Of a stretch of 32,000 bases of DNA, positions 6,882 through 26,381 are shown one piece after another. The notes under the pieces were generated by a model, which was not told the origin of the DNA, did not search any database, and saw only the letters and a program-made list of their open reading frames with translations. Each line of letters starts with the position of its first letter. Position 1 is the first letter of the stretch. Origin of the DNA: Thermoproteus tenax Kra 1. GTDB lineage: Archaea > Thermoproteota > Thermoprotei > Thermoproteales > Thermoproteaceae. Both the position numbers and the translations under genes were made by a program. The stretch spans positions 1,170,001-1,202,000 of the forward strand of contig NC_016070.1 in NCBI RefSeq assembly GCF_000253055.1, in the 5' to 3' direction.

Positions 6882-7936
6882 AGCTCCACCCGGCTGAAGT
6901 CCGAGATTATAAGCCTTGCCTCCCCCCTAAGATCCCGCCGCGACCTTACGACGCTACGCCTACCCAACACGCTGTCCACAAGCCTAAGCCCGCCCACCTC
7001 CACCTCCGCCTCGTTGAGAAGAAGGGAGCGCGACGCGCCGCCCGAGGCCAGGCGCGCCCCCGACTCCAGCGACACGTAGTGCTCCACCACCGCCCCCCGC
7101 CCCACGTACGCCCCCGGCCCCACGTAGGCCGGGCCAAACACCCTCCCCTCAACCACGGCGCCCTTCTCCACGACGACGCGCCCAACCACCTCCCCCCGGA
7201 CCTCCCCCTCCACCCTTGCCTCGGCGTGGTCTAGGAGAAGGTACACCGCCTCCAGAAGGCCCTCCGGCGTCCCCACGTCCTTCCACCAGCCGTCAACGAA
7301 GTCAAACCCCACCCTCCTCCCTCGGTCGATAAACCACTGGATGAGGTCCGTCACCTCGTACTCCCCCCTCCACGACGGCTTAAGCGACGAGAAGGCCCTC
7401 GCCACGTCCTCAGGATCCCTAAACATATACACGCCGACTACCGCCAGATCCGAGACCGGCTCCCTAGGCTTCTCCACCAGCCTAACCACCCGGCCGTCCC
7501 TAAGGACGGCCACCCCAAACCGGCTCGGGTCGGGCACCCTCGCCAGGAGGATGTAGACGTCGAAATCCCCCTCCAAAAAGGCACGCACGTGGCGCTTGAT
7601 GCCGCCCGCCAAGATGTTATCCCCCAGATAAACCACGAAGGGCCCCTTTATTTCGGGCAACGCCAGGCTGATGGCGTGGGCGATGCCCAGCCGGCGCTCC
7701 TGCCAGAAGTAGCGCACCCGCACCCCCAGGCGAGAGCCATCCCCCAGATGCTCTTGAATCAGATGCCCCATATACCCCACAACCACCCCCACCTCCGAAA
7801 CCCCAGCCTCAGCCAGGTGGACGATGGGGTATTCGATCATCGCCCTACCCAGAAGCGGGATCAAGTGCTTCGGAGTAGAAAACGTAAACGGCCGGAGACG
7901 CGAGCCCTCGCCGCCGGCAAGAACAAGACCAAACAT
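6878..7936 (-). CDS. rmlA: Glucose-1-phosphate thymidylyltransferase (long archaeal form with C-terminal left-handed beta-helix region)
   Basis: 352 aa. LAGGEGSRLRPFT nucleotidyltransferase signature. C-terminal part has a hexapeptide-repeat-like character (GxVVxxG repeats). Confidence 0.9.
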   Translation of the reverse strand: MFGLVLAGGEGSRLRPFTFSTPKHLIPLLGRAMIEYPIVHLAEAGVSEVGVVVGYMGHLIQEHLGDGSRLGVRVRYFWQERRLGIAHAISLALPEIKGPFVVYLGDNILAGGIKRHVRAFLEGDFDVYILLARVPDPSRFGVAVLRDGRVVRLVEKPREPVSDLAVVGVYMFRDPEDVARAFSSLKPSWRGEYEVTDLIQWFIDRGRRVGFDFVDGWWKDVGTPEGLLEAVYLLLDHAEARVEGEVRGEVVGRVVVEKGAVVEGRVFGPAYVGPGAYVGRGAVVEHYVSLESGARLASGGASRSLLLNEAEVEVGGLRLVDSVLGRRSVVRSRRDLRGEARLIISDFSRVEL

Positions 7937-7956
7937 TGGCTAATAGAGGGAAGCTG

Positions 7957-7964
7957 TATTTAAC
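7957..7964 (-). promoter_or_regulatory. TATA-like box for the rml operon
   Basis: Minus strand reads GTTAAATA, then 20 nt, then ATG at 7936. Confidence 0.45.
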
Positions 7965-8461
7965 TTGTTGTGGCATGTACCCCAGATAATTGCTTGGTAT
8001 ACATAGCCAGCGATTCTGCTATGAATATGTTGCATCTCATCTTTGCTAGGGTCTAATAGTTACGATAGATCTCGATAGATACTCTAGGTACTTCTCTCTA
8101 GCCCCCCCTTCGCGGCGCCCGGCCTCCTGGGGGACTGAAACACAGCCGGCACCAGAAAGTATGCCGTAATTAGCGCAAACCCTAGGCCTTCCATTGTATA
8201 GACTTCTCCGCCTTTGTCTTCCAGAACTTGTCTGAGAAGGCTCTGTTGCGTTGTCTGCTCTCCTTTCTCCCGTCGGCACCTTAATTCGCCTTACACTCGG
8301 CCTCCTCTAACACGATAGGACGTAAGTAAGAACCGAGTTTGTCATCGTCGATCTCTGGCTGTAGACCCCACCCAGCGTCCCCCTTGGCCTATAGCCGGCC
8401 GCCTTTTTCGCAGAAGATCGGTTTCTGAGAGTGTTGTCTACTACACTTTGCAGATAAGTAC

Positions 8462-9406
8462 CTAGGCCATCCACGTCAGCTCTTTCACTAGCTCTGCCGC
8501 CGCCCTTTTCGCCGTCTCGAGGCTGTTCAGCCTGGGCCTCCAGCCGGTGAGCTCCACTATCCTTCTGATGGAGAGGAGCATGTACTTCACGTCCCCCGGC
8601 CAGCCCCTCCCGTCTGAGGTCGCCGGCCTCAGCTTGATCTGTGGAGAGAGGCCCATGGCCTCCGCCGCGGCCCTCGCGAGGTCTAGGACGGAGGCCGCGT
8701 CGAAATTGCCCACGTTCAGCGCCAGGTACGGCTCCCCCGTCTCCTCGAACTTCCTCCAGGCCCTCAGCGTCGCCTCCACAGCCTCTTCGACGTGTAGGTA
8801 GCTCTTCCTCTGTGTGCCGTCCCCCAGAACCTCCAGCTCCTCCGGCCTCTTCCTCAGCTTCATGAGGAAGTCGTAAAGCGCCCCGTGTCTCATCCTCGGC
8901 CCCACCACGTTGGCGTACCTCAGCGCAAGGCACCTAACGCCGTAGAGCCTGGCATACGCGGCACACATCGTCTCGCCAGCCGCCTTAGCCGCGCCGTAGA
9001 CGCTTATCGGCTCCAGCGGGTGATCCTCCGGAGTCGGCATAACCCTAGCATCGCCGTAGACGGTTGAAGACGAGGCAAACACGACAGTCCTAACGCCGGA
9101 GGCGCGGGCCCACTCCAGCACGTTAAACGTAGCCACCATATTCTCCTCAAAATGGACGCGGGGCTCCGTAGTGGAGACCCTAACCTCGGGGTTCGCGGCG
9201 AAGTGGAAGACGACGTCCGCCCTCAGCCCCGCGCCCCAGCCGGGCTCCTTTAGATCCCGCCTTATGAACTCGGCGCGGGGGTTCACGTTCTCTTTCCTGC
9301 CTGTGGAGAGGTTGTCCACGACCACTACCTCGTACCCCTCCTCCACAAGCCGATCCACCAGGTGGCTGCCGATGAAGCCGGCTCCGCCTGTCACCAAAAC
9401 CCTCAC
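8462..9406 (-). CDS. NAD-dependent sugar epimerase/dehydratase (SDR, UDP-glucose 4-epimerase-like)
   Basis: 314 aa. VTGGAGFIGSHLV and YGAAKAAGE (YxxxK). GTG start. Confidence 0.88.
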   Translation of the reverse strand: MRVLVTGGAGFIGSHLVDRLVEEGYEVVVVDNLSTGRKENVNPRAEFIRRDLKEPGWGAGLRADVVFHFAANPEVRVSTTEPRVHFEENMVATFNVLEWARASGVRTVVFASSSTVYGDARVMPTPEDHPLEPISVYGAAKAAGETMCAAYARLYGVRCLALRYANVVGPRMRHGALYDFLMKLRKRPEELEVLGDGTQRKSYLHVEEAVEATLRAWRKFEETGEPYLALNVGNFDAASVLDLARAAAEAMGLSPQIKLRPATSDGRGWPGDVKYMLLSIRRIVELTGWRPRLNSLETAKRAAAELVKELTWMA

Positions 9407-9424
9407 GGAGGAGCTCTAGAGGTC

Positions 9425-9434
9425 TGTATTAAGC
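9425..9434 (-). promoter_or_regulatory. TATA-like box for the epimerase gene
   Basis: Minus strand reads GCTTAATACA, then about 18 nt, then GTG at 9406. Lies in the AT-rich divergent intergenic region 9407-9683. Confidence 0.35.
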
Positions 9435-9657
9435 ATTTACGCGCGTTTTCGCCCTACCGAGCGAGTCATTCGCAAACTTCCTCCTTCATGCATTGCTATA
9501 TATTCGAGACGGCGCCCTTCAGCCTGGCTCGCTCCTTTCCAATATCTCTTCAAAAAGATAGTATTTTTAATTAACAGTATATTAACAACATTATATCCAG
9601 ACTTGTTATCTTTAACTAGATCTATACAAATCAAAAGAACTCTACCAAGGTCAATAC

Positions 9658-9664
9658 TTAAAAA
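9658..9664 (+). promoter_or_regulatory. TATA-like box for the plus-strand two-gene unit
   Basis: TTAAAAA, then 19 nt, then ATG at 9684. Confidence 0.4.
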
Positions 9665-9683
9665 GAACTTTCTTACAAGTTTC

Positions 9684-9941
9684 ATGCACAGAGATAAGGC
9701 TGTCGGCGCTGCGCTCGTGGCCTTGGGCGTCGTGGGCATCTTGTTGTACGGATGGCTCGTCTTCCTCTCGCCGTGGTCCCTAGCGGTGTTGCGGGCTACC
9801 GCCTTCGTGGCCGTGGCGGCGGTCTTGGGCATTCTGGCCTGGGTGGGATACGCCTTGGCCACAACGCCGCCTCCCAAGCCTATAGAGGAGATCGAGAAAG
9901 AAATAGAACAAGAGCTGAAGAAGTTGGAAGAATCCAAATGA
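9684..9941 (+). CDS. Small 2-TM membrane protein (85 aa) with acidic/lysine-rich tail
   Basis: Start taken at the internal ATG 9684 (MHRDKAVGAALVALGVVGILLYGWLVF...). Two hydrophobic helices. Its stop overlaps the next ATG in ATGA (9938-9941). Confidence 0.6.
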   Translation: MHRDKAVGAALVALGVVGILLYGWLVFLSPWSLAVLRATAFVAVAAVLGILAWVGYALATTPPPKPIEEIEKEIEQELKKLEESK

Positions 9942-10837
9942 ACTATGTCGTCGTAATCCCCACGCTCAACGAAAGAGAGGCTATAGGTCGTGTAATAGAG
10001 GAGATAGCGAGCTCGGGCATACCCCTAGAGCGCATAATAGTGGTAGACGGAGGCTCTACAGACGGCACGTGCGAAGAGGCAGAAAGGCTTGGGGTAAAGT
10101 GTATGTTACAAGAGGGCAAGGGGAAATCCGACGCTATACGCACGATAGTTAGACGAGTTGACGCCGACATATATGTCTTTTTAGACGGAGATTGGACGTA
10201 CCCCGCCAAACATATACCGGAGCTCTTAAAGCTGGCAGAGGAGTGCGACGAGGTTATCGGTGCGAGAAAAAACGTTGAGCCAGGCGCGCAGAGGCTGATA
10301 TACAGGCTGGGCAACTGGGCACTCACGAGGGCGTTCAACCTCATCTTCGGCACAAGACTCACGGACGTCTTGAGCGGGATGTATGCAGTAAGACGAGACG
10401 CCGTGATAGACGCCGAATTTAACACCAAAGGCTTCAGCGTAGAGGCGGAGGTGGCCGCCCACGTGGCTTCGACTGGGAGGACGATATGTGAAATCCCTAT
10501 AACATACAGGAGGAGACTGGGGAAGAAAAAACTAAAGCCGCTACACGGCGTTCAAATATTCAAAGACATGATCCTCTTAGCTTGGCGCTACAACCCAGTC
10601 TTCTTGATTTTCACAGCGGCGGCTTCGCTACTAGTGCCCGGCCTATCGTTGGGGATATGGGTACTGTACGAGTGGATCTTCTTCGACGTGAAGCACTACG
10701 TCTGGGGACTAGTAGCGTTCATACTCAGCACCAGCGGCGTAGTATCGGCGGCTCTGGCCTTGATGGCCGTATATTTAAAGAGGATGGAGATCAGACTTCT
10801 AAGGGCAATAAGGCGCGATAGAAGGCCATGCGGTTAG
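9938..10837 (+). CDS. GT2 polyprenyl(dolichyl)-phosphate glycosyltransferase, GtrB/Dpm1-like
   Basis: Start at ATG 9938 (MNYVVVIPTLNEREAIG). IIVVDGGSTDGT and FLDGDWTYP motifs. Two C-terminal TM helices as in GtrB-type enzymes. The upstream part of the tracked ORF (9752-9937) is Gly/Arg-rich and overlaps the previous gene. Confidence 0.85.
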   Translation: MNYVVVIPTLNEREAIGRVIEEIASSGIPLERIIVVDGGSTDGTCEEAERLGVKCMLQEGKGKSDAIRTIVRRVDADIYVFLDGDWTYPAKHIPELLKLAEECDEVIGARKNVEPGAQRLIYRLGNWALTRAFNLIFGTRLTDVLSGMYAVRRDAVIDAEFNTKGFSVEAEVAAHVASTGRTICEIPITYRRRLGKKKLKPLHGVQIFKDMILLAWRYNPVFLIFTAAASLLVPGLSLGIWVLYEWIFFDVKHYVWGLVAFILSTSGVVSAALALMAVYLKRMEIRLLRAIRRDRRPCG

Positions 10838-10855
10838 CAAACGCGCCGCGAGAAA

Positions 10856-11720
10856 TTAGACCAACTTCGATAAAAAAAGACGGCCGAACCTTGTGCCAAC
10901 TCTGGCTAAGTTGGGCAGAGTGGCCGCCGTCAGCCTAAATGAGACGACACGCTCCATTAGGGCGAAGGCCCACAGCCCCAACGGTATCCTGCTGGGCAAC
11001 TCGGCGACGCCCCTCGCCACAGCTAAATGTAGAGACGCAATATAGCGCATCGCCGGAGCTACCCCCAGCTCCTCCAAGATCCCCCTGTCGAGCCACTTAT
11101 CGACGGTCAGAAAATCGTTGAGCGTGTAGATCCGCTCTTTATAAACGGCGTGCGCTACCGCGAGGGCCGCCTCCGCGCCTAGGGAGAGGGCAGGCAACTT
11201 GACGCCGCCAAAGTCGGCCACTTTCCACGTGTTTAAAAAGCCCCTCGGCATCCAGATACGCGACGCCGCCCAACGTGGGCAAGACGTAGAGATCCACGAT
11301 GTCGACGCCGCGAGCCATAGTCACACAGTACGGATCCTTCACGGCGACTGAGAAGCCCCTCTTCCTCAACTCAACGACGGCGAGCCCCACGTCTCTCCGG
11401 TCGACCAACACATCGACGTCGGAAGGCACATAGGCGACAGGCCTCCTGAGCTTAATGAACACGTGGCGGACCCCGCGCAGAGCCTCCGCCACCTCTCTGA
11501 GGGTCTTGAGAAATCGGGCATACCTCGCCTCTTCTCTGAGCCTCAACGGCCCCTCCACGCCTGCCGATCTGAGGAAGTGCAGAAGGACTTTATTTCTCGC
11601 CGCAACTTCGACGCACTCCCCAGCAGATCTGGCGTCGACGCCGGCGCCGCGCGTAATTACGTCAAATACGAGGCGGAAGCAGTTCACAGCCCCAAGAGGA
11701 GGCGAGCCCTCTCGGCGCAT
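10856..11720 (-). pseudogene. Uncharacterised nucleotidyltransferase (NTP_transf_5-like), frameshifted
   Basis: Two ORFs in different frames (11139-11720 and 10856-11251). The N-part has the PSDVDVLVDRRD nucleotidyltransferase-type motif. The reading switches at GGGGCTTTTTAAAC (about 11231-11244): ...AYLDAEGLF then LNTWKVADFGGVKLPALSLGAEAALAVAHAVYKE... Confidence 0.7.
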
Positions 11721-12853: not shown

Positions 12854-14407
12854 CTACGACATCAACATCACGATCCTCCTCTCGGCCTTAAGCAGAAACA
12901 CAAGGGGCCTCGTCAAGCCGCCGGCCCGTCTGAAGACCTCTATGAGCAACTCCACATCTCTTGCGTCCAAGGCCTTAAGCAGAGGGAGGGCCACTGCATA
13001 AGATGTAATATAGATCGGAATCCCCAGCGCGAGGGCCAAGACATTCTGCGCGCCCGCCTCAAACAGGGCCAGCGGCGGGAGAGCCGCCAGAAGAGAGGCC
13101 AGGTATATTCTGGCTATACGGGGCGCCCCTAGAGACACTTTGGCGACCTTCCTCGCCCTTATCAGCAGATATAGGGTGGAGGCGTAGCCCCCGGCGAGCC
13201 CCGCCAACACGTTCCCCAAGACTCCCAACGCCGGGACTAGAGCGAGCGTAAGCGGCAGAGACACCGCTGTGGAGACCGCCCACGACTTAAGGAGCTCCTT
13301 AGTCATCCCAAGCCCGGCGAACAAGCTACTGAGGGCGTAGCCGCCCAAGCCGACGCTGAGGGTCCCCAACGCCGCCAGCGATAGGTAGAGCGGCGCCGAC
13401 GCGTAGCTTGCGCCGTATATGAGGGACACCAAGTCCCTTGAGAACAAGATCAACGCGACGGCTACAGGCACTACAACGATCGAGCTGAGCTTGACAGACT
13501 CCCTAAAGATCCCGGCCGCGGCCTGGCCCCCAGCCCTCGAGAAGGCCGCGAAGAGCGTCGAGCTGATAGAGGACGTCAATAGGGCAAGAGCCGAGGCTAT
13601 GTTATTGGCGGCGGAGTAGTTGCCCAAGTCGTAGTTGTTTACGAAGTGGGCCGTGTAGACGAACAAGGTGTTGCTCAAGACGAAGCCCGCCAACGTGGGC
13701 ACGTAGGTGGGGTAGCTGTACGAGACCATAGACCTCAGAGACTCGAAGAAGCCGACGTCCTCCGCTCCGCCGCTGGCCAAACCTCTGTAGAGCCTAAAAA
13801 AGAAGTACAGAGCCAAGGCAGTCGCCACGGCGTAGCTCACGACGTGTCCCACAACGGCGCCCAGAACTCCTAGGTACAACGTCAACGAGAGGGCCAACGC
13901 CAGTTTCGAGGCAGCTTGAACTAGGTTGACGAGAGCCCCGTAGTCTGTCCTCAATGTGGCCAAGAAGAGGGCGTTACAGACGTCTAAAACCATGGAGGTC
14001 AACATCAGCGCCGAGGCCACTCTGACTAAACTGGACAGCTCGGGCCTGGCGAGAAAATAGCGGGCGACGGCGCCGGAAAACGCCGCTATCGTCAAAACCG
14101 CCCCGAGCCCCACGGCGGCTCTAAAAAGCAAGGCGTTTCTCGCGTAGAGCGCAGCCGCCGAGCCTCTGCCGCGAGCCGCCAGAGAAGAGACGTAGTAAGT
14201 CACGGCCCCACTCAAGCCGAGACTCAACAGAGGGCCAAATATGGAGGGTATGCTCAAAACGAGGGAGTAGATGCCGTAGCCGCTGGGCCCCAGAAGTCTG
14301 GCGATGATTATCGAGGCGGCCGCCAAAACAGCGGTGGATGCGAAACCGCCAGCGAAAAGGAAGAGCCCGCCCCTAGCAACTCTAGCAGCTTCGTCGACAT
14401 AGCCCAT
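12854..14407 (-). CDS. Wzx-like polysaccharide/oligosaccharide flippase (MOP superfamily, polysaccharide biosynthesis protein)
   Basis: 517 aa, hydrophobic throughout with many predicted TM helices and a typical N-terminal ...IARLLGPSGYGIYSL motif. An intact paralog of the broken copy at 24820-26381. Confidence 0.85.
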   Translation of the reverse strand: MGYVDEAARVARGGLFLFAGGFASTAVLAAASIIIARLLGPSGYGIYSLVLSIPSIFGPLLSLGLSGAVTYYVSSLAARGRGSAAALYARNALLFRAAVGLGAVLTIAAFSGAVARYFLARPELSSLVRVASALMLTSMVLDVCNALFLATLRTDYGALVNLVQAASKLALALSLTLYLGVLGAVVGHVVSYAVATALALYFFFRLYRGLASGGAEDVGFFESLRSMVSYSYPTYVPTLAGFVLSNTLFVYTAHFVNNYDLGNYSAANNIASALALLTSSISSTLFAAFSRAGGQAAAGIFRESVKLSSIVVVPVAVALILFSRDLVSLIYGASYASAPLYLSLAALGTLSVGLGGYALSSLFAGLGMTKELLKSWAVSTAVSLPLTLALVPALGVLGNVLAGLAGGYASTLYLLIRARKVAKVSLGAPRIARIYLASLLAALPPLALFEAGAQNVLALALGIPIYITSYAVALPLLKALDARDVELLIEVFRRAGGLTRPLVFLLKAERRIVMLMS

Positions 14408-14448: not shown

Positions 14449-14871
14449 CTAGTGCAAGAGCCAGCCCTGCAGATATATCGCCTTAAGCCGAGCGATGCTC
14501 CTTATTGCGTCTGCCGGAGTCTCCACGAGGGGTTATTCAGCCACTGAACCTCGTGCTTGGCATCGCCCCTTTATTTGTGCCGTTTCCCGAGCACTTTGAT
14601 GGTGTTATGAGGAGGCCATGGACATTACGTGGCTTGGCCCATTGGGCCTAAACAGCGATGGTATATCGTGGATGCCGTAAACTACGGGGACGCCGAATGT
14701 ATTTACATCCTTAATGCCAAGGCCCAGTAACTTACCGACGTAAACAACATCAAACCCTCCAAGGTCTAGGGATCCGCCACTAGGCTCAAGGAAAGAAACC
14801 GCGTAGCCCATCCTAGAGAGAGCAACGCCCAAGCCCTCATCGAACCAATTAACAAAAAGAACCCTATACAT
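14449..14871 (-). pseudogene. GT4-type glycosyltransferase remnant (N-terminal about 88 codons plus a 27-codon C-terminal scrap)
   Basis: MYRVLFVNWFDEGLG...FDVVYVGK...PVVYGIHD ends prematurely at 14605. A separate frame at 14449-14532 reads PLVETPADAIRSIARLKAIYLQGWLLH-stop, a GT-like C-terminus. The catalytic C-domain is missing. Confidence 0.45.
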
Positions 14872-15643
14872 ACACCACACCGATGCCGAAACCTCCCTGC
14901 CTCCAGTCCTTGACCAACTCCATGTATTTATCCCTCGGCAGTCTTTGCTTTAGCTCGCTCCAAAACCTAGGGACGCCGCCGACGTACTCCGGCGGCCCTG
15001 GCACTATGTCGTGGAAGGCGATTATGCCGCCTTTCCTAACCAGCGGCGAGTACATCTCGAAGTCTCTCTTCACTCCCTCGTAGGTGTGGTCTCCGTCGAT
15101 AAACAAGAAGTCCACCTTCCTACCGCCGAGAGCCCTCTCCACTCTCTCGAGAGTACGCTGGTCGTGGCTGTCGCCTCTAATGAGGACGACCCTCTGCCTT
15201 CCTCTCGCAAACGATCTGTATAGAAAGCCTTTGAGCCAGGGGTATCCGCCGCCAAACAGCCCGCCGGGGAGGTCTACGCTTATAAGTAACGCGTCGTCGG
15301 TAGCCGCCCAAGTCCAGAGGAACAAAGTGCCGCCTCTCGCCGTGCCAATCTCAAGAACAACCGAAGGCCTAACCCCAGCCACAAGTCTCACCAACTGCTC
15401 GACCTCCTCTCTAATCTGCATAGGCGTAATAAGACGGGCGATAGTGTCGCTAGAGAATAAGAAGTCAAGTGCTTTCTCCCAACTGCCAACTTTTCTAAAT
15501 TTGAAGCGTGCATATGGTGACAACAAAAAACTTACAACCCCCACTCTCTCAAGTCTCCGAAAACTAAATCTCAAAGCCACATAAAACAAAGACCCAACAC
15601 CCCCACTCTTAACAACTTCCGCAACTCCCCCCAACAACCCCAT
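14864..15643 (-). CDS. Class I SAM-dependent methyltransferase (CmcI / Methyltransf_24-like, sugar O-methyltransferase candidate)
   Basis: 259 aa. VVLEIGTARGGT (motif I) and FLFIDGDHTYEGVKRDFE. Confidence 0.8.
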   Translation of the reverse strand: MGLLGGVAEVVKSGGVGSLFYVALRFSFRRLERVGVVSFLLSPYARFKFRKVGSWEKALDFLFSSDTIARLITPMQIREEVEQLVRLVAGVRPSVVLEIGTARGGTLFLWTWAATDDALLISVDLPGGLFGGGYPWLKGFLYRSFARGRQRVVLIRGDSHDQRTLERVERALGGRKVDFLFIDGDHTYEGVKRDFEMYSPLVRKGGIIAFHDIVPGPPEYVGGVPRFWSELKQRLPRDKYMELVKDWRQGGFGIGVVYV

Positions 15644-15709: not shown

Positions 15710-16216
15710 TTATGTATAGCTTTGAGCAAATAATGCATAGTCTATATAGATGTTTGTACATGCCAAGAAGCCGAACCTTAATATAGTACCAGGGTCGTCT
15801 CTCTTGATCCTCGGCTTGCTACGTTTATTTGCAATATGGCGAAATACGCCGCGTCTAAGTTTCAGCCCCAGCCTTATTCCATCGACGTAAGACCTTATAC
15901 GCAATCTTTTCATATTGGGGAACAACGCCATGAAACGAATCATTGCATTTAAAGGCCAATGGCTATCATAAGCTATAGGTACTGCCGTACCGCTCACCCC
16001 CGACCAATACTCAAGGACCGCGTTTAACTTACGTCCTATCGTCGCACTTCTGAAGTGCTTACCTACAATTATTGGTACAGCGACTAAGGCGTAGCCGCTT
16101 CTCCAAAGTCTTATGCCCAATTCGTAGTCGTCGCCCCACATGAAGAAGTAGAACAGGGATAAGCCGTAACAAGGACCCCTAAATGATCTGAGCCTGCTGA
16201 CAAGTAAGCTATCTTT
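15710..16216 (-). pseudogene. GT2 glycosyltransferase C-terminal remnant
   Basis: The open frame begins right after TGA TGA. It reads ...LFYFFMWGDDYELGIRLWRSGYALVAV, matching ...YFFWFDDVDYSLRVWSAGYRVVCV of the intact GT2 at 17553-18554. The whole N-terminal catalytic half (DxD region) is absent. Confidence 0.65.
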
Positions 16217-16410
16217 TCATCAGAACATTGGTATTGGGATGTTTATAGATTACATCCGTGTAGCTTGGTAAAAATAAAGTATCTACAGGGTGGCTAATGT
16301 AGAAGAGCCAGACTTGTAAAAGTCGCGTAGGTTATTAACTATAAACTGAAGCTAAACATTGCAATGGTAATGAGTATTACACAAACATTAACTATAGTGT
16401 AAACTTACAA

Positions 16411-17004
16411 TTAGTCCTCCTCGCGTTTGTTCGTCACTTCATTAAATAGTACGGCAAGATTTGATGCCATATCAGTCAAAGGGTAACGCTCAGCAAGTCT
16501 TCTAGAGCTAAGGCTTGGAACTACGTAAGAATTGTCCTTTTTCCAAAGCATATAATATTTCAAGACTCCCCTTGTTAGACTTCTGAGATCAAATGGCCTA
16601 GTTATATGGCCGCAGAGCTCACCCTTGGATACGGCTGGCTTCAGAATATCTCTGGGAGCTCCGGGAATGTCAAACGCGACTACAGGTGTACCGCAAGCTA
16701 GGGCTTCGAGAACTATTAGACCGAAAGTTTCATACCTGCTTGGAAAGAGTAAGAGATGTGCTTGAAGTAGTTCCCTGAGAAAGTCTCTTCTAGATAGCCA
16801 ATGAAATATTTCGACCCTGCTTGGGAACTTGCTAGCGAGATCTTGGAGATATCGTACGGGAACTGGAAGTATACCATGACCAAGAAATATCTTAGCTTGT
16901 ATGTCTGGGAAACGCGAAAGGAGAGAGCTTATAACAGATGCTGCGATATCTGCACCTTTTCCATACCGGGCACCAACAAATTCAGGAGTTAAATAAAGAG
17001 TTAT
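16411..17004 (-). pseudogene. Split GT4 glycosyltransferase, piece 3 of 3 (C-terminal domain)
   Basis: ITLYLTPEFVGARYGKGADI...FPSRYETFGLIVLEALACGTPVVAFD (GT4 E-x7-E region). The 13 codons upstream (to 17043) are antisense of piece 2. Confidence 0.75.
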
Positions 17005-17459
17005 TGAAACGCAGGATAAAAACAATTGCTGTACCATCAACATACGAGTTCCCTCTAAGCCGTTTGGATCCCCGATTCTTCGCAGAGTTTGACGTAATTT
17101 ATTTCGTCAATTTGTTTTTTCCTACTGACGAACTTCGCTATCTCTTAAGACTTTCTCATACCCTAAAGACAAAGCCCATAGTATATGGTGTACACGCACT
17201 AGTAATTATGCCTGGATTTAGAGGGTATAGGCCACGTAATTACTTATATAGTGTATTATCTCTTCTTCGGCTAACTGTTGAAAAGGTATTTATAAACAAA
17301 CAAATCAGAGTCGTTCATGTTTTAAACAGCTTTGATCTCTCTGTGTTTAAAACTCTAGAGTTTCGTCGGACGGCGTATATCCCATGGGGTATTCCCAATA
17401 CGATACTAGAAAGATGTCAGCCGTATTCTAATAAAAAACAAAGCAATAAGTTTACTATT
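17005..17459 (+). pseudogene. Split GT4 glycosyltransferase, piece 2 of 3 (N-domain segment, inverted relative to pieces 1 and 3)
   Basis: The plus-strand frame reads KRRIKTIAVPSTYEFPLSRLDPRFFAEFDVIYFVN...KPIVYGVHALV...RVVHVLNSFD...AYIPWGIPN...NKFTI, colinear with N-domains of the intact GT4s. No GT4 C-domain follows it on the plus strand. Confidence 0.7.
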
Positions 17460-17514
17460 GAAAGTATTCATCCGATGGCTTCCAATTTACGAATGCTACC
17501 TTAATAAATTCCAC
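17460..17514 (-). pseudogene. Split GT4 glycosyltransferase, piece 1 of 3 (first 18 codons)
   Basis: GTG at 17514, then EFIKVAFVNWKPSDEYF. In the present arrangement it runs into Q-stop. It resembles MYRVLFVNWFDEG of the remnant at 14871. Confidence 0.6.
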
Positions 17515-17535
17515 CGATTTAATACTACCTAGGAA

Positions 17536-17543
17536 CTTATAAA
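17536..17543 (-). promoter_or_regulatory. TATA-like box for the split GT4 gene
   Basis: Minus strand reads TTTATAAG, then 21 nt, then GTG at 17514. Confidence 0.4.
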
Positions 17544-17552
17544 CACACGTGC

Positions 17553-18554
17553 TTATCGTAAAAGGTGTAAATTTTTTGCTGTCAAATGTGGATATGCGAC
17601 AGCACGATACGTATTTATTGAAAGCCTAATTTTACTCGTATAAAGCTTTCGGCCTATGGCTCTCTTTACGAAGTGTTTTAAGCCTATAAACGAGTAAAGA
17701 AGCCCTAGCGTGTCCAAATGCCTTAGATAATGTAGTATTGATACGTATGTGTACTCAATTATAGCGATCGGCAATATCGCGACAAGAGATGTGACAGGTA
17801 ACTTCATCAGCAGAGACATAAAATTCCTTGAGAAGTAATATTGTAACTTTGGGTTCGTTTTGCCAAATGTAGCACTACCGATGTGGTATACAAAGTGTCT
17901 GAGTACGCAGACTACTCTATACCCTGCTGACCAAACCCTCAAGCTATAGTCAACATCATCAAACCAGAAAAAGTAGTCTTCGTCAAACATGCCAAGCTTA
18001 AAGAAAAGATCTGATCTTGTCATAAGAGCCGCGCCAATTGCATACGATACATCTAACAAGTTTTTGTGCATTTTATGAGTATATATCGCATCGGCTGTTA
18101 TGGGAGAGGGTATGAGACCCAGACTCAAAGCAAACCCAAGGTTATGTGAACCATCTAGGTTTATCACTACAGGTTGGGCAACTCCTACATCGGGGTTGCT
18201 CTCCATGATCTCGACTAGTCCAGAAACCAAGTCAGGCTTTATAAATACGTCATCATTCAAGAATAATATATATTTACTATCTCTAAGGAGTACTGCAGCC
18301 CTATTGTTGCCCCCGGACCACCCATAGTTCTTCCTCAACCTCAAGATCTCAACATTACACTTGGAACTTCTTGTATTAAAGAACTCGGCCACAAAGTCTG
18401 GGGTTCTATCTCTCGATCCATTGTCGGCTATCACAACCCTACAGTTATCGTAATCTATAGAGGACAGTCGTGTCAATATCTTTTGAAATACTTCCTCGCC
18501 AATTTTGCTAAGAGTGTTATACGTCAACATTACTATACCTACTCTTGGCTTCAT
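17553..18554 (-). CDS. GT2 glycosyltransferase (rhamnosyltransferase-like architecture, C-terminal TM segment)
   Basis: 333 aa. VGIVMLTYNT, VVIADNGSRDRT, LFLNDDV and WFDDVDYSLRVWSAGYRV. Confidence 0.88.
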   Translation of the reverse strand: MKPRVGIVMLTYNTLSKIGEEVFQKILTRLSSIDYDNCRVVIADNGSRDRTPDFVAEFFNTRSSKCNVEILRLRKNYGWSGGNNRAAVLLRDSKYILFLNDDVFIKPDLVSGLVEIMESNPDVGVAQPVVINLDGSHNLGFALSLGLIPSPITADAIYTHKMHKNLLDVSYAIGAALMTRSDLFFKLGMFDEDYFFWFDDVDYSLRVWSAGYRVVCVLRHFVYHIGSATFGKTNPKLQYYFSRNFMSLLMKLPVTSLVAILPIAIIEYTYVSILHYLRHLDTLGLLYSFIGLKHFVKRAIGRKLYTSKIRLSINTYRAVAYPHLTAKNLHLLR

Positions 18555-19253
18555 CTATTTAACTTGGGAAGTTATGAGATTCGAAACTATGTTAAAGACA
18601 GCCTTTATGTCTAAAGAGGATGTATCTATATAATATGTTTCTATATATGTAGCAAAAGATAACAGACTCTTAGAGAGAGTTCGATAAAACTCGATCCAAC
18701 CCCTTGGCTCGGTATAAGAACCCCTCTTTCTATACCGAGCTAGTAATGAGCTGTAGCCTGCATCTAAGTATATGATAATACTATGTGCTGAGAAAAGACG
18801 TAAGAGCAGGCGTGTGATTATAAGATGCGTACGCGTAATCTTATGGCTTGAGAGGCCTATTGCATACATATCAACCAGAAAGTCTATGACATGCCTCGTC
18901 ACAATTACTGTATAACCCATTAGTCTAAATAGCAAAACTTTGAGAACGTGAGCTGTCAAGAAGGCCGCGGTTTCTAGTATTAACCATGTATTAATAATTC
19001 TACCTATAAATAGCCTATCTACTCTGGAGATGTATACATCTGGATAACGATAGTACTCTGCACGTCCACACCAAATTAGGAACTTTATCAAAAGGTACAT
19101 GAAGAGATTATTACTCCTAACTTCTGTAATTACCACAGGCAACCTATACCTCTTTTCTAGATATCGCTTAACTAGATACGCTTGAGTAGTCTTACCAGCG
19201 CCTTCGGGCCCCAGAATGTATATCAATAACCTATTCCGCATTCCGTTTCCCAA
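18555..19253 (-). CDS. P-loop kinase-like protein (thymidylate-kinase-like layout) with hydrophobic insert, AT-rich paralog
   Basis: 232 aa. Walker A ILGPEGAGKTTQ, VTRHVIDFLV (DR-motif position) and IIIYLDAGYSSLLARYRKRG. Abuts the next gene with no spacer. Confidence 0.65.
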   Translation of the reverse strand: MGNGMRNRLLIYILGPEGAGKTTQAYLVKRYLEKRYRLPVVITEVRSNNLFMYLLIKFLIWCGRAEYYRYPDVYISRVDRLFIGRIINTWLILETAAFLTAHVLKVLLFRLMGYTVIVTRHVIDFLVDMYAIGLSSHKITRTHLIITRLLLRLFSAHSIIIYLDAGYSSLLARYRKRGSYTEPRGWIEFYRTLSKSLLSFATYIETYYIDTSSLDIKAVFNIVSNLITSQVK

Positions 19254-20344
19254 CTTCTGTAGAGAATTTATGGAGTATCTCTTTCATAACCCTTAATAGC
19301 GATAACCTAAAGACCTTAAAGGTATAGTTTCTCTCTATAAGTCCTCGGAATTCTGACGCGATAGACCGCCAACTCTCACGCGGTAGACTATTGTTGACAA
19401 AGTCTTCTATAGGGATATAGTGTTTTCTGGGAATCGCCGGCAGGTGTAACATGCCCGTGGCAGTTGTGATTATGGGTATTCCACAGTAGCCGGCCTCTAG
19501 TATTTTGTTCCTTATACCACCGCATATGGCATTCTTAGGATAAGGTAGTATTGCAGCATCTGACGATATTATTAACGCCACGTACATCGGATATGATAGG
19601 TAGCCTGTATACACAATATTTCTATGTATCTTGTCCTTAACCTTAAGACCTGTTACAAAGATCACAAAATCCTGTGACAGCATAGATGTTATCTTCAACA
19701 ACTCCTCATACGCAAGTATGTTAGATGCAAAAATGTCAGGCAGAGGGGCCACAAATATTTTCTTTCTATGACAGTCAAATACTTCTAAAGAGGTACACAG
19801 CGTCCTACGTATGTTCTCAATGCTAATATTCTTTAATTTTGTTACTATATTTTCAAAAATAGGAGTCAAAGCATTCTCTATAACAAACACTTCCCCAATA
19901 GAAAAGTACTTATTAAGCACCATAGCTAGATATCTTGAGGCTACTATAATGTATTTAGCGTGTTTGTAGGTAATATATTCACTAATAAATAACAACAATT
20001 TAGAAATGGTATTAGCTTTGCCCATAGCCAATGTCTCAAGCCAAGAAGAGCCGTGCACATCAACGATTATGGGTCTCCTGACGGTCTTTCTTTACAAAGA
20101 CGACTAGTGCAGCAACCCAGGGATTGACACCACTGACTATAACTAAATCTGCCCCTACCAGACTCGATAGAATACTAGGCATAAGTATATAAACGACACT
20201 TGTAACAGGTATATAGATCAGCTGTATAGAGCTCAGATCCCTCAGTGAGTAGTATATGTTAAGTGGCCTGAGAAGAGAGCCAGAGATATTATTAGCAGAA
20301 GGACCTATTACAACAAGACGCCATTTCGTAGACCAGGTTTGCAT
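19231..20344 (-). pseudogene. GT4-like glycosyltransferase with one frameshift
   Basis: ORFs 20060-20344 and 19231-20058 are in different frames. The reading ...PWVAALVVFVKK then (R)KTVRRPIIVDVHGSSWLE switches within GTAAAGAAAGACC (about 20065-20090). The C-part has NKILEAGYCGIPIITTATG. Confidence 0.65.
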
Positions 20345-20572
20345 AGAGACTAGATTCCCCTTAAACCTGAATATACTAGCTACGTAATGCTTGATACCCT
20401 GAGTCTAGGCTCAGCATACACGGGCTTGTGGATAAATTATTCCAAAACAATCCAGTAGCCAAAGCATTAAATTAAGCGACTCCCAATAGAGCCAACACCA
20501 CTACAACAAAAGTCCTCAACGACCTCACAACAACCCACACTTAAGTGAGATGTCCTCATATGTTAAAAGATA

Positions 20573-24819: not shown

Positions 24820-26381
24820 TCAGCGGCTTAGGAGGTTCACAACGCGCCTCTCAACCGCGAGCAAGGCGACGAGGGGCTTAGCCGCTGGCCCTACCTGTCT
24901 CAAAACCTCCGTGAGAACCTCCACATCCTTACCATCGATGGCTTTTAGCAGCGGGAGCGCAACTGCGTAGGCCACTACATACACAGCAGCCCCAACCGCG
25001 AGGGCCAGCGCGTCGTGCGCCATCACCGCCGTCGCCGCGAGCGTTGGGAAGGCAGACACGAGGGACGCCGCGTATACCCTAGCGACGCGAGGCACGCCTA
25101 TGGATACGCCAACAGCTCTTTCAGCCCTAGCCAGTAAGTAAGCGATCGATGCGTAGCCGCCGACTAGCCCAGCCATCATGGCGCCGAGAACTCCGAGAGC
25201 GGGCACGAGGGCTAGCGTAAGCGGTAGCGATACAGCGGTTGAGACAAGCCACGACCTCAGGGCCTCCCTCGTCATCCCAAGCCCGGCGAATAAGCTACCG
25301 AGGGCGTAACCTCCTACGCCGACGCCGAGGGCTCCGAGCGTCGCCAGCGATAGGTAGAGAGGAGCTAGCGCGTAGCCCTCGCCATAGACGACGCGTACCA
25401 TGTGCTTAGAGAGCAGTATTGTCAGCACAGCGGCGGGTAGCACCACGATTGAGCTAAGCCTAACGAACTCCCTAAGACCACAGCCACACCACACCCATCG
25501 GCGCCGAGCCTCGAAAAGACTGCGAACAACGTCGAGCCTATGGACGACGTTAGTAAGCTAAACACCGAAGCTAGGTTCATAGCGACTTAGTAGTTGCCGA
25601 GGTCGTAATCGCTCACGAAGTGGGCCGTGTAGGTGAACAACGCCCTATCAACGACGAAGCTGACTAACATCGGCACGTAGAGGGGGTAGCTGTAGAGGGC
25701 CATAGACCTAAGCGACTCAACGAAGCCAACACCCCCCGCGTAATCACCGCCTAAAGCCCTGAAGAGCTTTATGAGGAGGGCCAGCGCCAGGGCCGCCGCC
25801 ACGACGTAGCTCGCGACATGCTCCAGAACAGCCCCGAAGACCCCTATCCACAGCACGAGCGGCACGGCGAGCGCCAGCTTCGAGGCAGCTTGGGATACCT
25901 TGATGAGGGCCCCGTAATCAGTCCTCAGCATAGCTAGGAAGAAGCCATCGCAAACGCCTATAACCAACGAGGTTGTGATCAAGACGGAGGCCACAGAGAC
26001 TAAGCTGGAAACATCGGGCCTGGCGAGGACGTAGCGCGCGACCGCGTCGGCAAACACCACCACGGCTAGGGAGGCCGCAAGCCCCAAAGTAGCCTCGAGG
26101 AGGAGCGCGTTCCTAACGTAGAGCACAGCCACAGAGCCCCTACCACTAGCAACGAGCGAGGAGGCGTAGTAGGTCACGGCATGCCCAATGCCGAGGCTAA
26201 GCAATGGGCCGAACACAGCGGGGAGGCTCAGGACGAGCGAGTAGACGCCGTAGCCATCAGGCCCCAAGAGCCTAGCAATGACTATCGAGGACGCGGCTGA
26301 GATGAGCATAGTAGCAAGCCCACCAACGAATAGATGAAGCCAACCCCTAGAGGCGCTCACAGCAAAATTACCAAACCTCAT
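24820..26381 (-). pseudogene. Second Wzx-like flippase copy, inactivated (premature stop plus frameshift)
   Basis: The N-part 25587-26381 ends ...FVSDYDLGNY-TAA where the intact copy reads ...FVNNYDLGNYSAANNIAS. Homology continues after the stop (VAMNLASVFSLLTSSIGSTLFAVFSR), then shifts frame near 25475-25500 into the C-part 24820-25494 (LREFVRLSSIVVLPAAV...). Confidence 0.85.

Follow-up and report, generated by a model that had tools for sequence, protein, structure and literature searches.

How did a glycosyltransferase gene of the hyperthermophilic archaeon Thermoproteus tenax come to carry its middle part on the opposite strand, and could such an arrangement serve as a switch? The window analysed here, a 32-kb stretch of DNA from T. 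tenax Kra 1, includes a GT4-type gene that runs on the minus strand from a GTG codon at position 17514 to a stop codon at 16411, with an internal segment in the opposite orientation. A preliminary description had read the locus as one gene in three pieces, interrupted by an inversion of 455 bp, and had proposed an ON/OFF switch. An intact ortholog in Desulfurococcus mucosus bears out the three pieces and the inversion, but neither the breakpoints nor the size that had been assigned to it. In our view the gene has very probably become a pseudogene through a single, recent and spontaneous microhomology-associated inversion within a decaying glycan cluster.

The pieces of the gene and their product

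When the three pieces (Table 1) are joined in one orientation, they form an open reading frame of 367 codons with zero internal stops. At present, the frame from the GTG covers 19 codons (MEFIKVAFVNWKPSDEYFQ) and then reads TAG TAA, that is, codon 18 of piece 1 is followed by a glutamine and two stops. Residues 2–19 of the D. mucosus protein map to 17514–17461 with 89% identity (tblastn). The remainder is visible as two ORFs that overlap around 17000, one of 188 aa on the plus strand (16938–17504) and one of 210 aa on the minus strand (16411–17043). The latter is identical to the T. tenax RefSeq protein WP_167828096.1, whose residues 1–21 are antisense of the inverted segment. In the original GenBank annotation nothing is assigned between CCC81981 and CCC81982 (TTX_1344 and the GT2 gene at 17553–18554); as these accessions are consecutive, the interrupted gene received no protein there. 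The GT2 gene lies upstream of the target gene, with its stop codon at 17553–17555.

Table 1. Features of the interrupted gene and its surroundings, in window coordinates.
Feature	Position	Strand	Description
TATA-box-like element TTTATAAG	17536-17543	-	21 nt 5' of the GTG; read directly from the sequence
Piece 1	17461-17514	-	GTG and codons 1-18 (MEFIKVAFVNWKPSDEYF); beta-strand 1 of the N-domain
Right junction microhomology TGAA (reverse complement of TTCA)	17459-17462		within arm 17449-17468
Inverted segment	16983-17460	+	codons 19-177 and base 1 of codon 178; most of the N-terminal Rossmann-like domain
Left junction microhomology TTCA	16981-16984		within imperfect inverted-repeat arm 16975-16994 (AACAAATTCAGGAGTTAAAT)
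Piece 3	16411-16982	-	last 2 bases of codon 178, codons 179-367, stop; C-terminal Glycos_transf_1 domain, E262-x7-E270
TTX_1344 ORF	15710-16141		short weak match to GT2 C-part
91-aa ORF	14605-14880		GT4 N-terminal fragment, same GT subfamily (hhalign, 97%)
Frameshifted NTP_transf_5-like gene	11720-10856		tblastn with D. mucosus proteins
Frameshifted GT4	20344-19231		tblastn with D. mucosus proteins
Frameshifted second flippase	26381-24820		tblastn with D. mucosus proteins

The upstream element, its spacer, the GTG start and the present 19-codon peptide are found in the sequence as the preliminary description had given them. In a nucleotide alignment, D. mucosus carries the counterpart TTTATGAT at the matching position. 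Judged from its position, TTTATAAG would act as the promoter, and it is presumably active. A scan for sigma-70 promoters and terminators gave nothing above shuffled sequences, its model being bacterial and not applicable to an archaeon, and Rfam scans at and near the breakpoints returned zero RNA genes. In the observed state the reading frame is lost: promoter and first 18 codons now lead into two stop codons, the N-domain sits antisense without a promoter, and the C-domain lacks its native start, so that the enzyme is null.

What did the gene encode? Compared with the GT4 profiles, the rebuilt protein exceeds the thresholds in its C-domain, where residues 180–316 match PF00534 (Glycos_transf_1) with 55.4 bits (cut-off 26.4) and PF13692 with 57.6 bits (cut-off 27). 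Piece 3 also matches by itself (Glycos_transf_1, 7e-15; Glyco_trans_1_4, 2e-15), and between the two overlapping ORFs it is the 210-aa one that holds all Pfam matches. For the N-domain families Glyco_transf_4 and Glyco_trans_4_4, both the rebuilt protein and the 188-aa ORF gave zero matches; the N-domain is divergent and recognisable at the profile or structure level only. Before testing, this missing match was the sole support for the idea that two or three unrelated remnants, never part of one gene, abut here by chance.

Such support no longer exists, and the idea now appears extremely improbable. In an alignment of 15 family sequences the rebuilt protein is colinear with its ~14 further homologs across both junctions, with FTIxFV-ARY-KGADI conserved at junction 2. 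The same alignment holds an E-x7-E motif (Y261-E262-TFGLIVL-E270) in which E262 is invariant. The family profile matches solved GT4/GT-B enzymes, several of them over both domains (BshA 5d00, BA1558 2jjm, PimA 2gej), and its positions 1–291 and 18–336 align to BshA-type GT4 chains. The fragment at 14605–14880, which had been described as colinear with the rebuilt N-terminus, does align with residues 3–106 and thereby spans junction 1.

Structure prediction points in the same direction. The AlphaFold2 model of the rebuilt protein (pLDDT 86.1, pTM 0.87) shows a single GT-B fold of two Rossmann-like halves with alternating beta and alpha elements, and Foldseek places it at TM 0.68–0.72 to MshA (3c4q), PimA (2gej), BshA (5d00/3mbo) and an archaeal glycogen synthase (2bis). 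Junction 1 follows beta-strand 1 and junction 2 lies within the strand that opens the C-domain, so that the inverted piece corresponds to nearly the entire N-domain. With the profile match in the C-domain, the colinear full-length alignment and the predicted fold, the assignment to a single GT4/GT-B gene stands, and its product is predicted with confidence to be a two-domain enzyme of this class.

A balanced inversion and its exact breakpoints

The inversion can be traced through an ortholog, the D. mucosus DSM 2162 protein annotated as glycosyl transferase group 1 (ADV64750.1 / WP_245526509.1, 370/371 aa). Its gene lies at 10001–11116 of the locus CP002363.1:412688–433803 and is intact and uninverted, in the same single orientation in 5/5 D. 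mucosus assemblies (the reference genome and four independent Logan read-set assemblies). A blastn comparison of this locus with the window returned three blocks that adjoin within 1–2 nt: locus positions 9204–10057 match 18329–17461 on the minus strand (E 6e-96), 10057–10535 match 16981–17460 on the plus strand (74% nucleotide identity, E 7e-82), and 10534–11081 match 16984–16437 again on the minus strand (83%, E 3e-162). Together, the intact ortholog and the three-block match prove the inversion event.

For a finer placement, the ORF was rebuilt with every combination of left and right breakpoints around the junctions, and the versions were scored one by one against the ortholog. A single family of optima emerged, in which left positions 16981–16985 pair with right positions 17462–17458 (five equivalent pairs), giving an inverted segment of 474–482 bp, nominally 478 bp. 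The corrected junction peptides read ...DEYF/QELNKELLKRRIKT... and ...KFTI-E-FVGARYGKG..., and the corresponding nucleotide sequences ...TACTT/TCAGGAG... and ...ACTAT/TGAATTTG.... The rebuilt protein shares 77% amino acid identity with the ortholog over all 367 residues with zero internal gaps, the sole gap being the 3 extra C-terminal residues of the ortholog, and the nucleotide alignment of the re-inverted DNA across promoter, gene and both joints is gapless within the gene. The inversion is therefore balanced and base-perfect, with no base lost or gained. The reading as unrelated remnants is refuted by these protein and DNA alignments.

The earlier breakpoints do not survive this comparison. 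A left breakpoint at 17004/17005, and with it a segment of 17005–17459, falls 22–24 bp short of the actual one at 16981–16985, and the resulting joints need two compensating gaps of 7 residues against the ortholog (BLASTP), one per junction and in opposite senses. The peptides ...DEYF-L-KRR... and ...KFTI-ITLYLTPEFVG... are accordingly not the true junctions, ITLYLTPE being antisense of QELNKELL. The sum of 55+455+594 = 1104 nt, or 367 codons, had been taken as evidence, but this total is identical for any breakpoints because the GTG at 17514 and the stop at 16411 share one frame of the minus strand; the informative frame in the rebuilt ORF is that of the middle piece only. The claim that the gene has no other lesion does hold, with zero further stops or indels. 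An OFF-state switch, for which the inversion would likewise be the sole lesion, would look identical.

Could the inversion have been introduced during sequencing, with the genomic gene intact and the rearrangement stemming from plasmid clones in E. coli or from Phrap assembly and finishing? The genome was built from Sanger reads with a mean of 616 nt at 8x coverage, obtained from TOPO plasmid clones and finished by primer walking (PMC3189178). The arrangement is documented from one T. tenax assembly, and the original annotation left the interval without a protein, which would fit such an origin. We nevertheless regard it as very unlikely. Since the mean read is longer than the 478-bp segment, reads would cross both junctions and a mis-assembly is improbable; an inversion cannot arise during assembly unless the junctions are present in some of the reads, and ~8 independent clones would need to carry the identical rearrangement. 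In addition, the stated error rate is < 0.4e-4 (PMC3189178), and both junctions are base-exact within microhomology, as is typical for biological events.

Outside D. mucosus, the relatives of the rebuilt protein are remote. About 15 metagenomic homologs with 31–39% identity cover most of its length, and no close homolog besides the D. mucosus protein was found in the protein collection searched. Two distant homolog loci are colinear without inversion, so the inverted architecture recurs neither there nor in the five D. mucosus assemblies. A scan of genome contigs with the ortholog returned distant GT4 genes of Lentisphaerota/Victivallaceae only, with neither T. tenax nor D. mucosus among the hits. 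Metagenome scans, run with proteins and with a degenerate DNA pattern for YIPWGIPNTI, gave zero T. tenax-like loci, and exact look-ups of three T. tenax window proteins in the contig index gave zero records.

Age of the inversion and decay of the glycan cluster

When did the gene break? Compared with the ortholog, the three pieces have dN/dS values of 0.13, 0.17 and 0.14, and these low values throughout indicate that the divergence built up under purifying selection. Given that 4.1% of single-base changes produce stops, and with indels assumed to make up 0–20%, the neutral divergence since inactivation has a 95% upper bound of ~1–7%, a figure that depends on rough assumptions. The signature of purifying selection in a gene without a further stop or indel means that the inversion is recent; from the lack of any other lesion, the preliminary description had judged it recent or reversible. 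It has possibly arisen in culture.

The window as a whole is a large cluster for glycan biosynthesis, with rmlABCD-type genes at 4.5–7.9 kb, many GT2 and GT4 genes, a CmcI-like methyltransferase, a polysaccharide deacetylase and Wzx-type flippases. Between ~16 and 20 kb the GC content drops from ~60% to 38–43%. Both genomes share a gene order of GT4, dTMP-kinase-like gene, GT2, target GT4 and, further on, a methyltransferase, and the D. mucosus block has a GC content of ~40–42% against a background of ~53%. The ortholog (GC ~41–42%) resembles its T. tenax counterpart in having the GT2 immediately upstream, the dTMP-kinase-like gene and GT4 further up and the methyltransferase downstream, and differs in being intact where the T. 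tenax gene is inverted. The neighbouring GT2 is split in D. mucosus too. The same gene set and low GC around the ortholog show that this ~4-kb block of ~40% GC shares its origin in both organisms, and horizontal acquisition is the best reading of it. For this low-GC region, the T. tenax genome paper had seen no evidence of a common lateral origin (PMC3189178).

Further signs of decay surround the gene. Three genes of the cluster appear frameshifted (Table 1), with the shifts near 20072–20091 in the GT4, 11217–11239 in the NTP_transf_5-like gene and 25434–25476 in the second flippase. The weak match of the TTX_1344 ORF suggests a GT2 remnant, and the 91-aa ORF adds a second fragment. Three frameshifted genes and two fragments make the inversion one lesion among several, which points to a glycan locus under relaxed selection. 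No paper on TTX_1344, TTX_1345 or TTX_1346 was found in the literature. As the preliminary description had stated, the window holds no recombinase gene: recombinase, integrase and transposase domains are absent from the sizeable ORFs scanned in its 32 kb. A recombinase could be encoded beyond the window.

Junction sequences, mechanism and known systems

What do the junctions tell us about the cause? Their perfect inverted homology is limited to the 4 bp TTCA and TGAA; when 100,000 breakpoint pairs were drawn at random from the same low-GC block, 2.0% showed microhomology of at least 4 bp. The two surrounding arms match at 12/20 positions in the best imperfect register. Over a wider in-register surround 23/54 positions match, compared with a background of 14.0 ± 3.2, a value reached by ~0.6% of random pairs. 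This likeness could mean a degenerate recombination site, or simply homology that made an illegitimate event easier. When the two junction regions are aligned locally without a fixed register, the score does not exceed background. A longer inverted repeat bracketing the segment was not found; the repeat pairs that bound invertons are typically at least 10 bp. Copies of the junction motif AANANNTTCANNAGTNAA are confined to the two source arms and one site with 1 mismatch at 19972, in a search that is circular as the motif was derived from the arms. The direct repeat TATTGAAA, once described at the breakpoints, has its left copy inside the inverted segment, away from the true left junction. It was rejected as a breakpoint feature; more copies of 8–9 nt of this word occur at 17615–17624.

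These sequences fit a one-off event. About 478 bp (16983–17460) would have been excised and rejoined, or re-copied, in reverse orientation, with the exchange points lying within the inverted microhomology TTCA...TGAA. Such exchange points are the mark of replication template switching or of illegitimate repair associated with microhomology, not of site-specific recombination. The pathway may have been microhomology-mediated break repair or break-induced replication on the one hand, or a double template switch on the other, and the inversion is presumably irreversible. An inversion balanced with respect to an intact ortholog, with short inverted microhomology exact at both junctions, is what such an origin of a pseudogene entails. 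We know of no characterised repair pathways for such inversions in hyperthermophilic crenarchaea. Schofield, Agbunag and Miller reportedly described, in 1992, E. coli inversions between short inverted repeats.

Surface-glycan genes are classic substrates of phase variation. A reversible intragenic inverton would be a different matter: a recombinase whose gene lies elsewhere in the genome would flip codons 19–177, turn the glycosyltransferase ON and OFF and thereby vary the surface glycan. We consider this reading unlikely, and equally doubt its premise that the 4-bp core within a degenerate inverted repeat of ~20 bp forms an inverton site in a crenarchaeal hyperthermophile. The base-perfect inversion, the otherwise undamaged gene with dN/dS ~0.16, the glycan target and the above-background likeness of the junctions in inverted register would all agree with a switch, and intragenic invertons are known in bacteria and once in a haloarchaeon (PMC10028968). 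On the other side stands a perfect inverted homology of 4 bp, whereas the thiC example has 11 nt (PMC10028968), together with zero recombinases in the window. The authors of the T. tenax genome paper count no more than five ORFs or fragments of transposases, and the TTX numbers of these are not close to TTX_1344; their 8x Sanger assembly shows one orientation, with the inversion unmentioned (PMC3189178). Furthermore, the ortholog keeps one orientation in its five assemblies and has TGTA in place of TGAA at junction 2, the more distant family members examined are colinear, and the neighbouring genes are frankly decayed. The proposed ON/OFF switch thus lacks repeats of invertase length, a recombinase in the window and a second orientation in the ortholog. 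If it were nevertheless true and cultures contained both orientations, Crenarchaeota would have their first intragenic phase switch, with a bearing on the variation of archaeal surface glycans; the present findings give no hint of this.

With a one-off inversion as the preferred reading, the value of the case lies mainly in annotation and in evolutionary detail. The RefSeq 'glycosyltransferase' WP_167828096.1 is the end part of a gene of 367 codons that an exact inversion of 478 bp has inactivated, and the low-GC block of ~4 kb around it shares origin and gene order with D. mucosus.

How does this lesion compare with known systems? Intragenic invertons as described by Chanin et al. (PMC10028968) are similar in that a short segment lying entirely within a single coding sequence is found turned round, with a truncated product in the flipped state; their one archaeal case places a premature stop in the adenylosuccinate synthase of Salarchaeum. 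They differ in having been called from detectable inverted repeats and reads in both orientations, with invertases assumed (PMC10028968), whereas T. tenax offers 4 bp, no nearby recombinase and one documented orientation. The invertible promoters of Bacteroides capsular polysaccharides (for example PMC3090145, PMC11685472) likewise affect glycan genes, in clusters that contain a Wzx-type flippase and numerous glycosyltransferases. There, however, dedicated recombinases of the serine or tyrosine type flip promoters between conserved inverted repeats, and a culture contains both states, while in T. tenax it is coding sequence that is flipped, and none of the defining features of the Bacteroides systems were found.

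A third likeness is to the microinversions that separate human and chimpanzee, which are base-perfect and carry inverted repeats of 3–8 nt exactly at their edges (PMC8755829), a pattern that TTCA/TGAA fits. Pure inversions of this kind have been documented as a class of spontaneous mutation, and the causes proposed for them are a double template switch and break-induced replication mediated by microhomology (PMC8755829). The primate events span 17–33 bp (PMC8755829), in contrast to ~478 bp in T. tenax. The type of lesion is already known and the T. tenax gene is a further instance of it: a clean natural case, from a hyperthermophilic archaeon, of a balanced inversion flanked by microhomology.

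Divergence and left junction of the rebuilt gene

When the rebuilt GT4 glycosyltransferase gene is compared with its intact ortholog in Desulfurococcus mucosus, dS is 1.17 in the inverted N-domain segment (16983-17460), 0.67 in the C-part (16411-16982) and 0.54 over the first 18 codons. The inverted segment thus has about twice the dS of the flanking parts, with a similar dN/dS; this higher value may stem from differing codon bias or from a mosaic produced by recombination.

At the left junction of the inversion lies one arm (16975-16994) of a 20-nt inverted repeat of 80% complementarity (AACAAATTCAGGAGTTAAAT / ATTTATTTCGTCAATTTGTT), while the other arm (17097-17116) falls within the inverted segment. 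The repeat is probably a product of chance in AT-rich DNA, and it could be relevant to a fold-back or template-switch intermediate.

Split genes and gene fragments in the window

Besides the inverted gene, the window contains further split genes and fragments, which are collected in the table.

Split genes and gene fragments in the window
Feature	Window position	Strand	Remark
NTP_transf_5-like gene, frameshift-split	10856-11720	-	frameshift near 11217-11239
91-aa ORF, gene fragment	14605-14880	-	hhalign 97%
TTX_1344, gene fragment	15710-16141	-	weak match to GT2 C-part
GT4 gene, frameshift-split	19231-20344	-	frameshift near 20072-20091
Second Wzx/Polysacc_synt-type flippase, split	24820-26381	-	break near 25434-25476

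What is left of the split GT4 gene is a 94-aa ORF (20060-20344) and a 275-aa ORF (19231-20058), which match residues 9-95 and 89-373 of its ortholog, a 381-aa gene at 7714-8859 of the D. mucosus locus L006, in different frames. Likewise, the NTP_transf_5-like gene is divided into two ORFs (11139-11720 and 10856-11251) and is orthologous to a 294-aa gene of D. mucosus. The second flippase consists of a 264-aa and a 224-aa ORF in different frames, and its 517-aa paralog at 12854-14407 is intact.

As for the fragments, the 91-aa ORF is an N-terminal piece from the GT subfamily of the inverted gene. The sole match of TTX_1344 is a weak one, to the C-part of a D. mucosus GT2 (L006 9392-9979, residues 56-102).

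Outside the window, at L011, the locus of a distant homolog of the inverted gene, the stretch 840-1926 holds the 273-aa metagenomic protein P0014 and, preceding it on the same strand, an 84-aa ORF. A stop or frameshift, rather than an inversion, seems to have split this family member.

A low-GC block common to T. tenax and D. mucosus

Both organisms were isolated from Icelandic solfataras. They have in common a block of low GC content (about 38-43%), located at about 16400-20400 of the T. tenax window and about 7000-11100 of L006, within which the proteins are about 50% to 77% identical and the GT4 and the dTMP-kinase-like gene stand in a different order. According to the T. tenax genome paper (PMC3189178), nothing indicated that the low-GC region was of common lateral origin. 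In D. mucosus, the GT2 gene directly upstream of the intact GT4 (L006 8952-9979) is split into ORFs of 139 and 195 aa, whereas its 333-aa T. tenax ortholog (17553-18554) is intact; therefore, each genome has lost a different gene of the common block.
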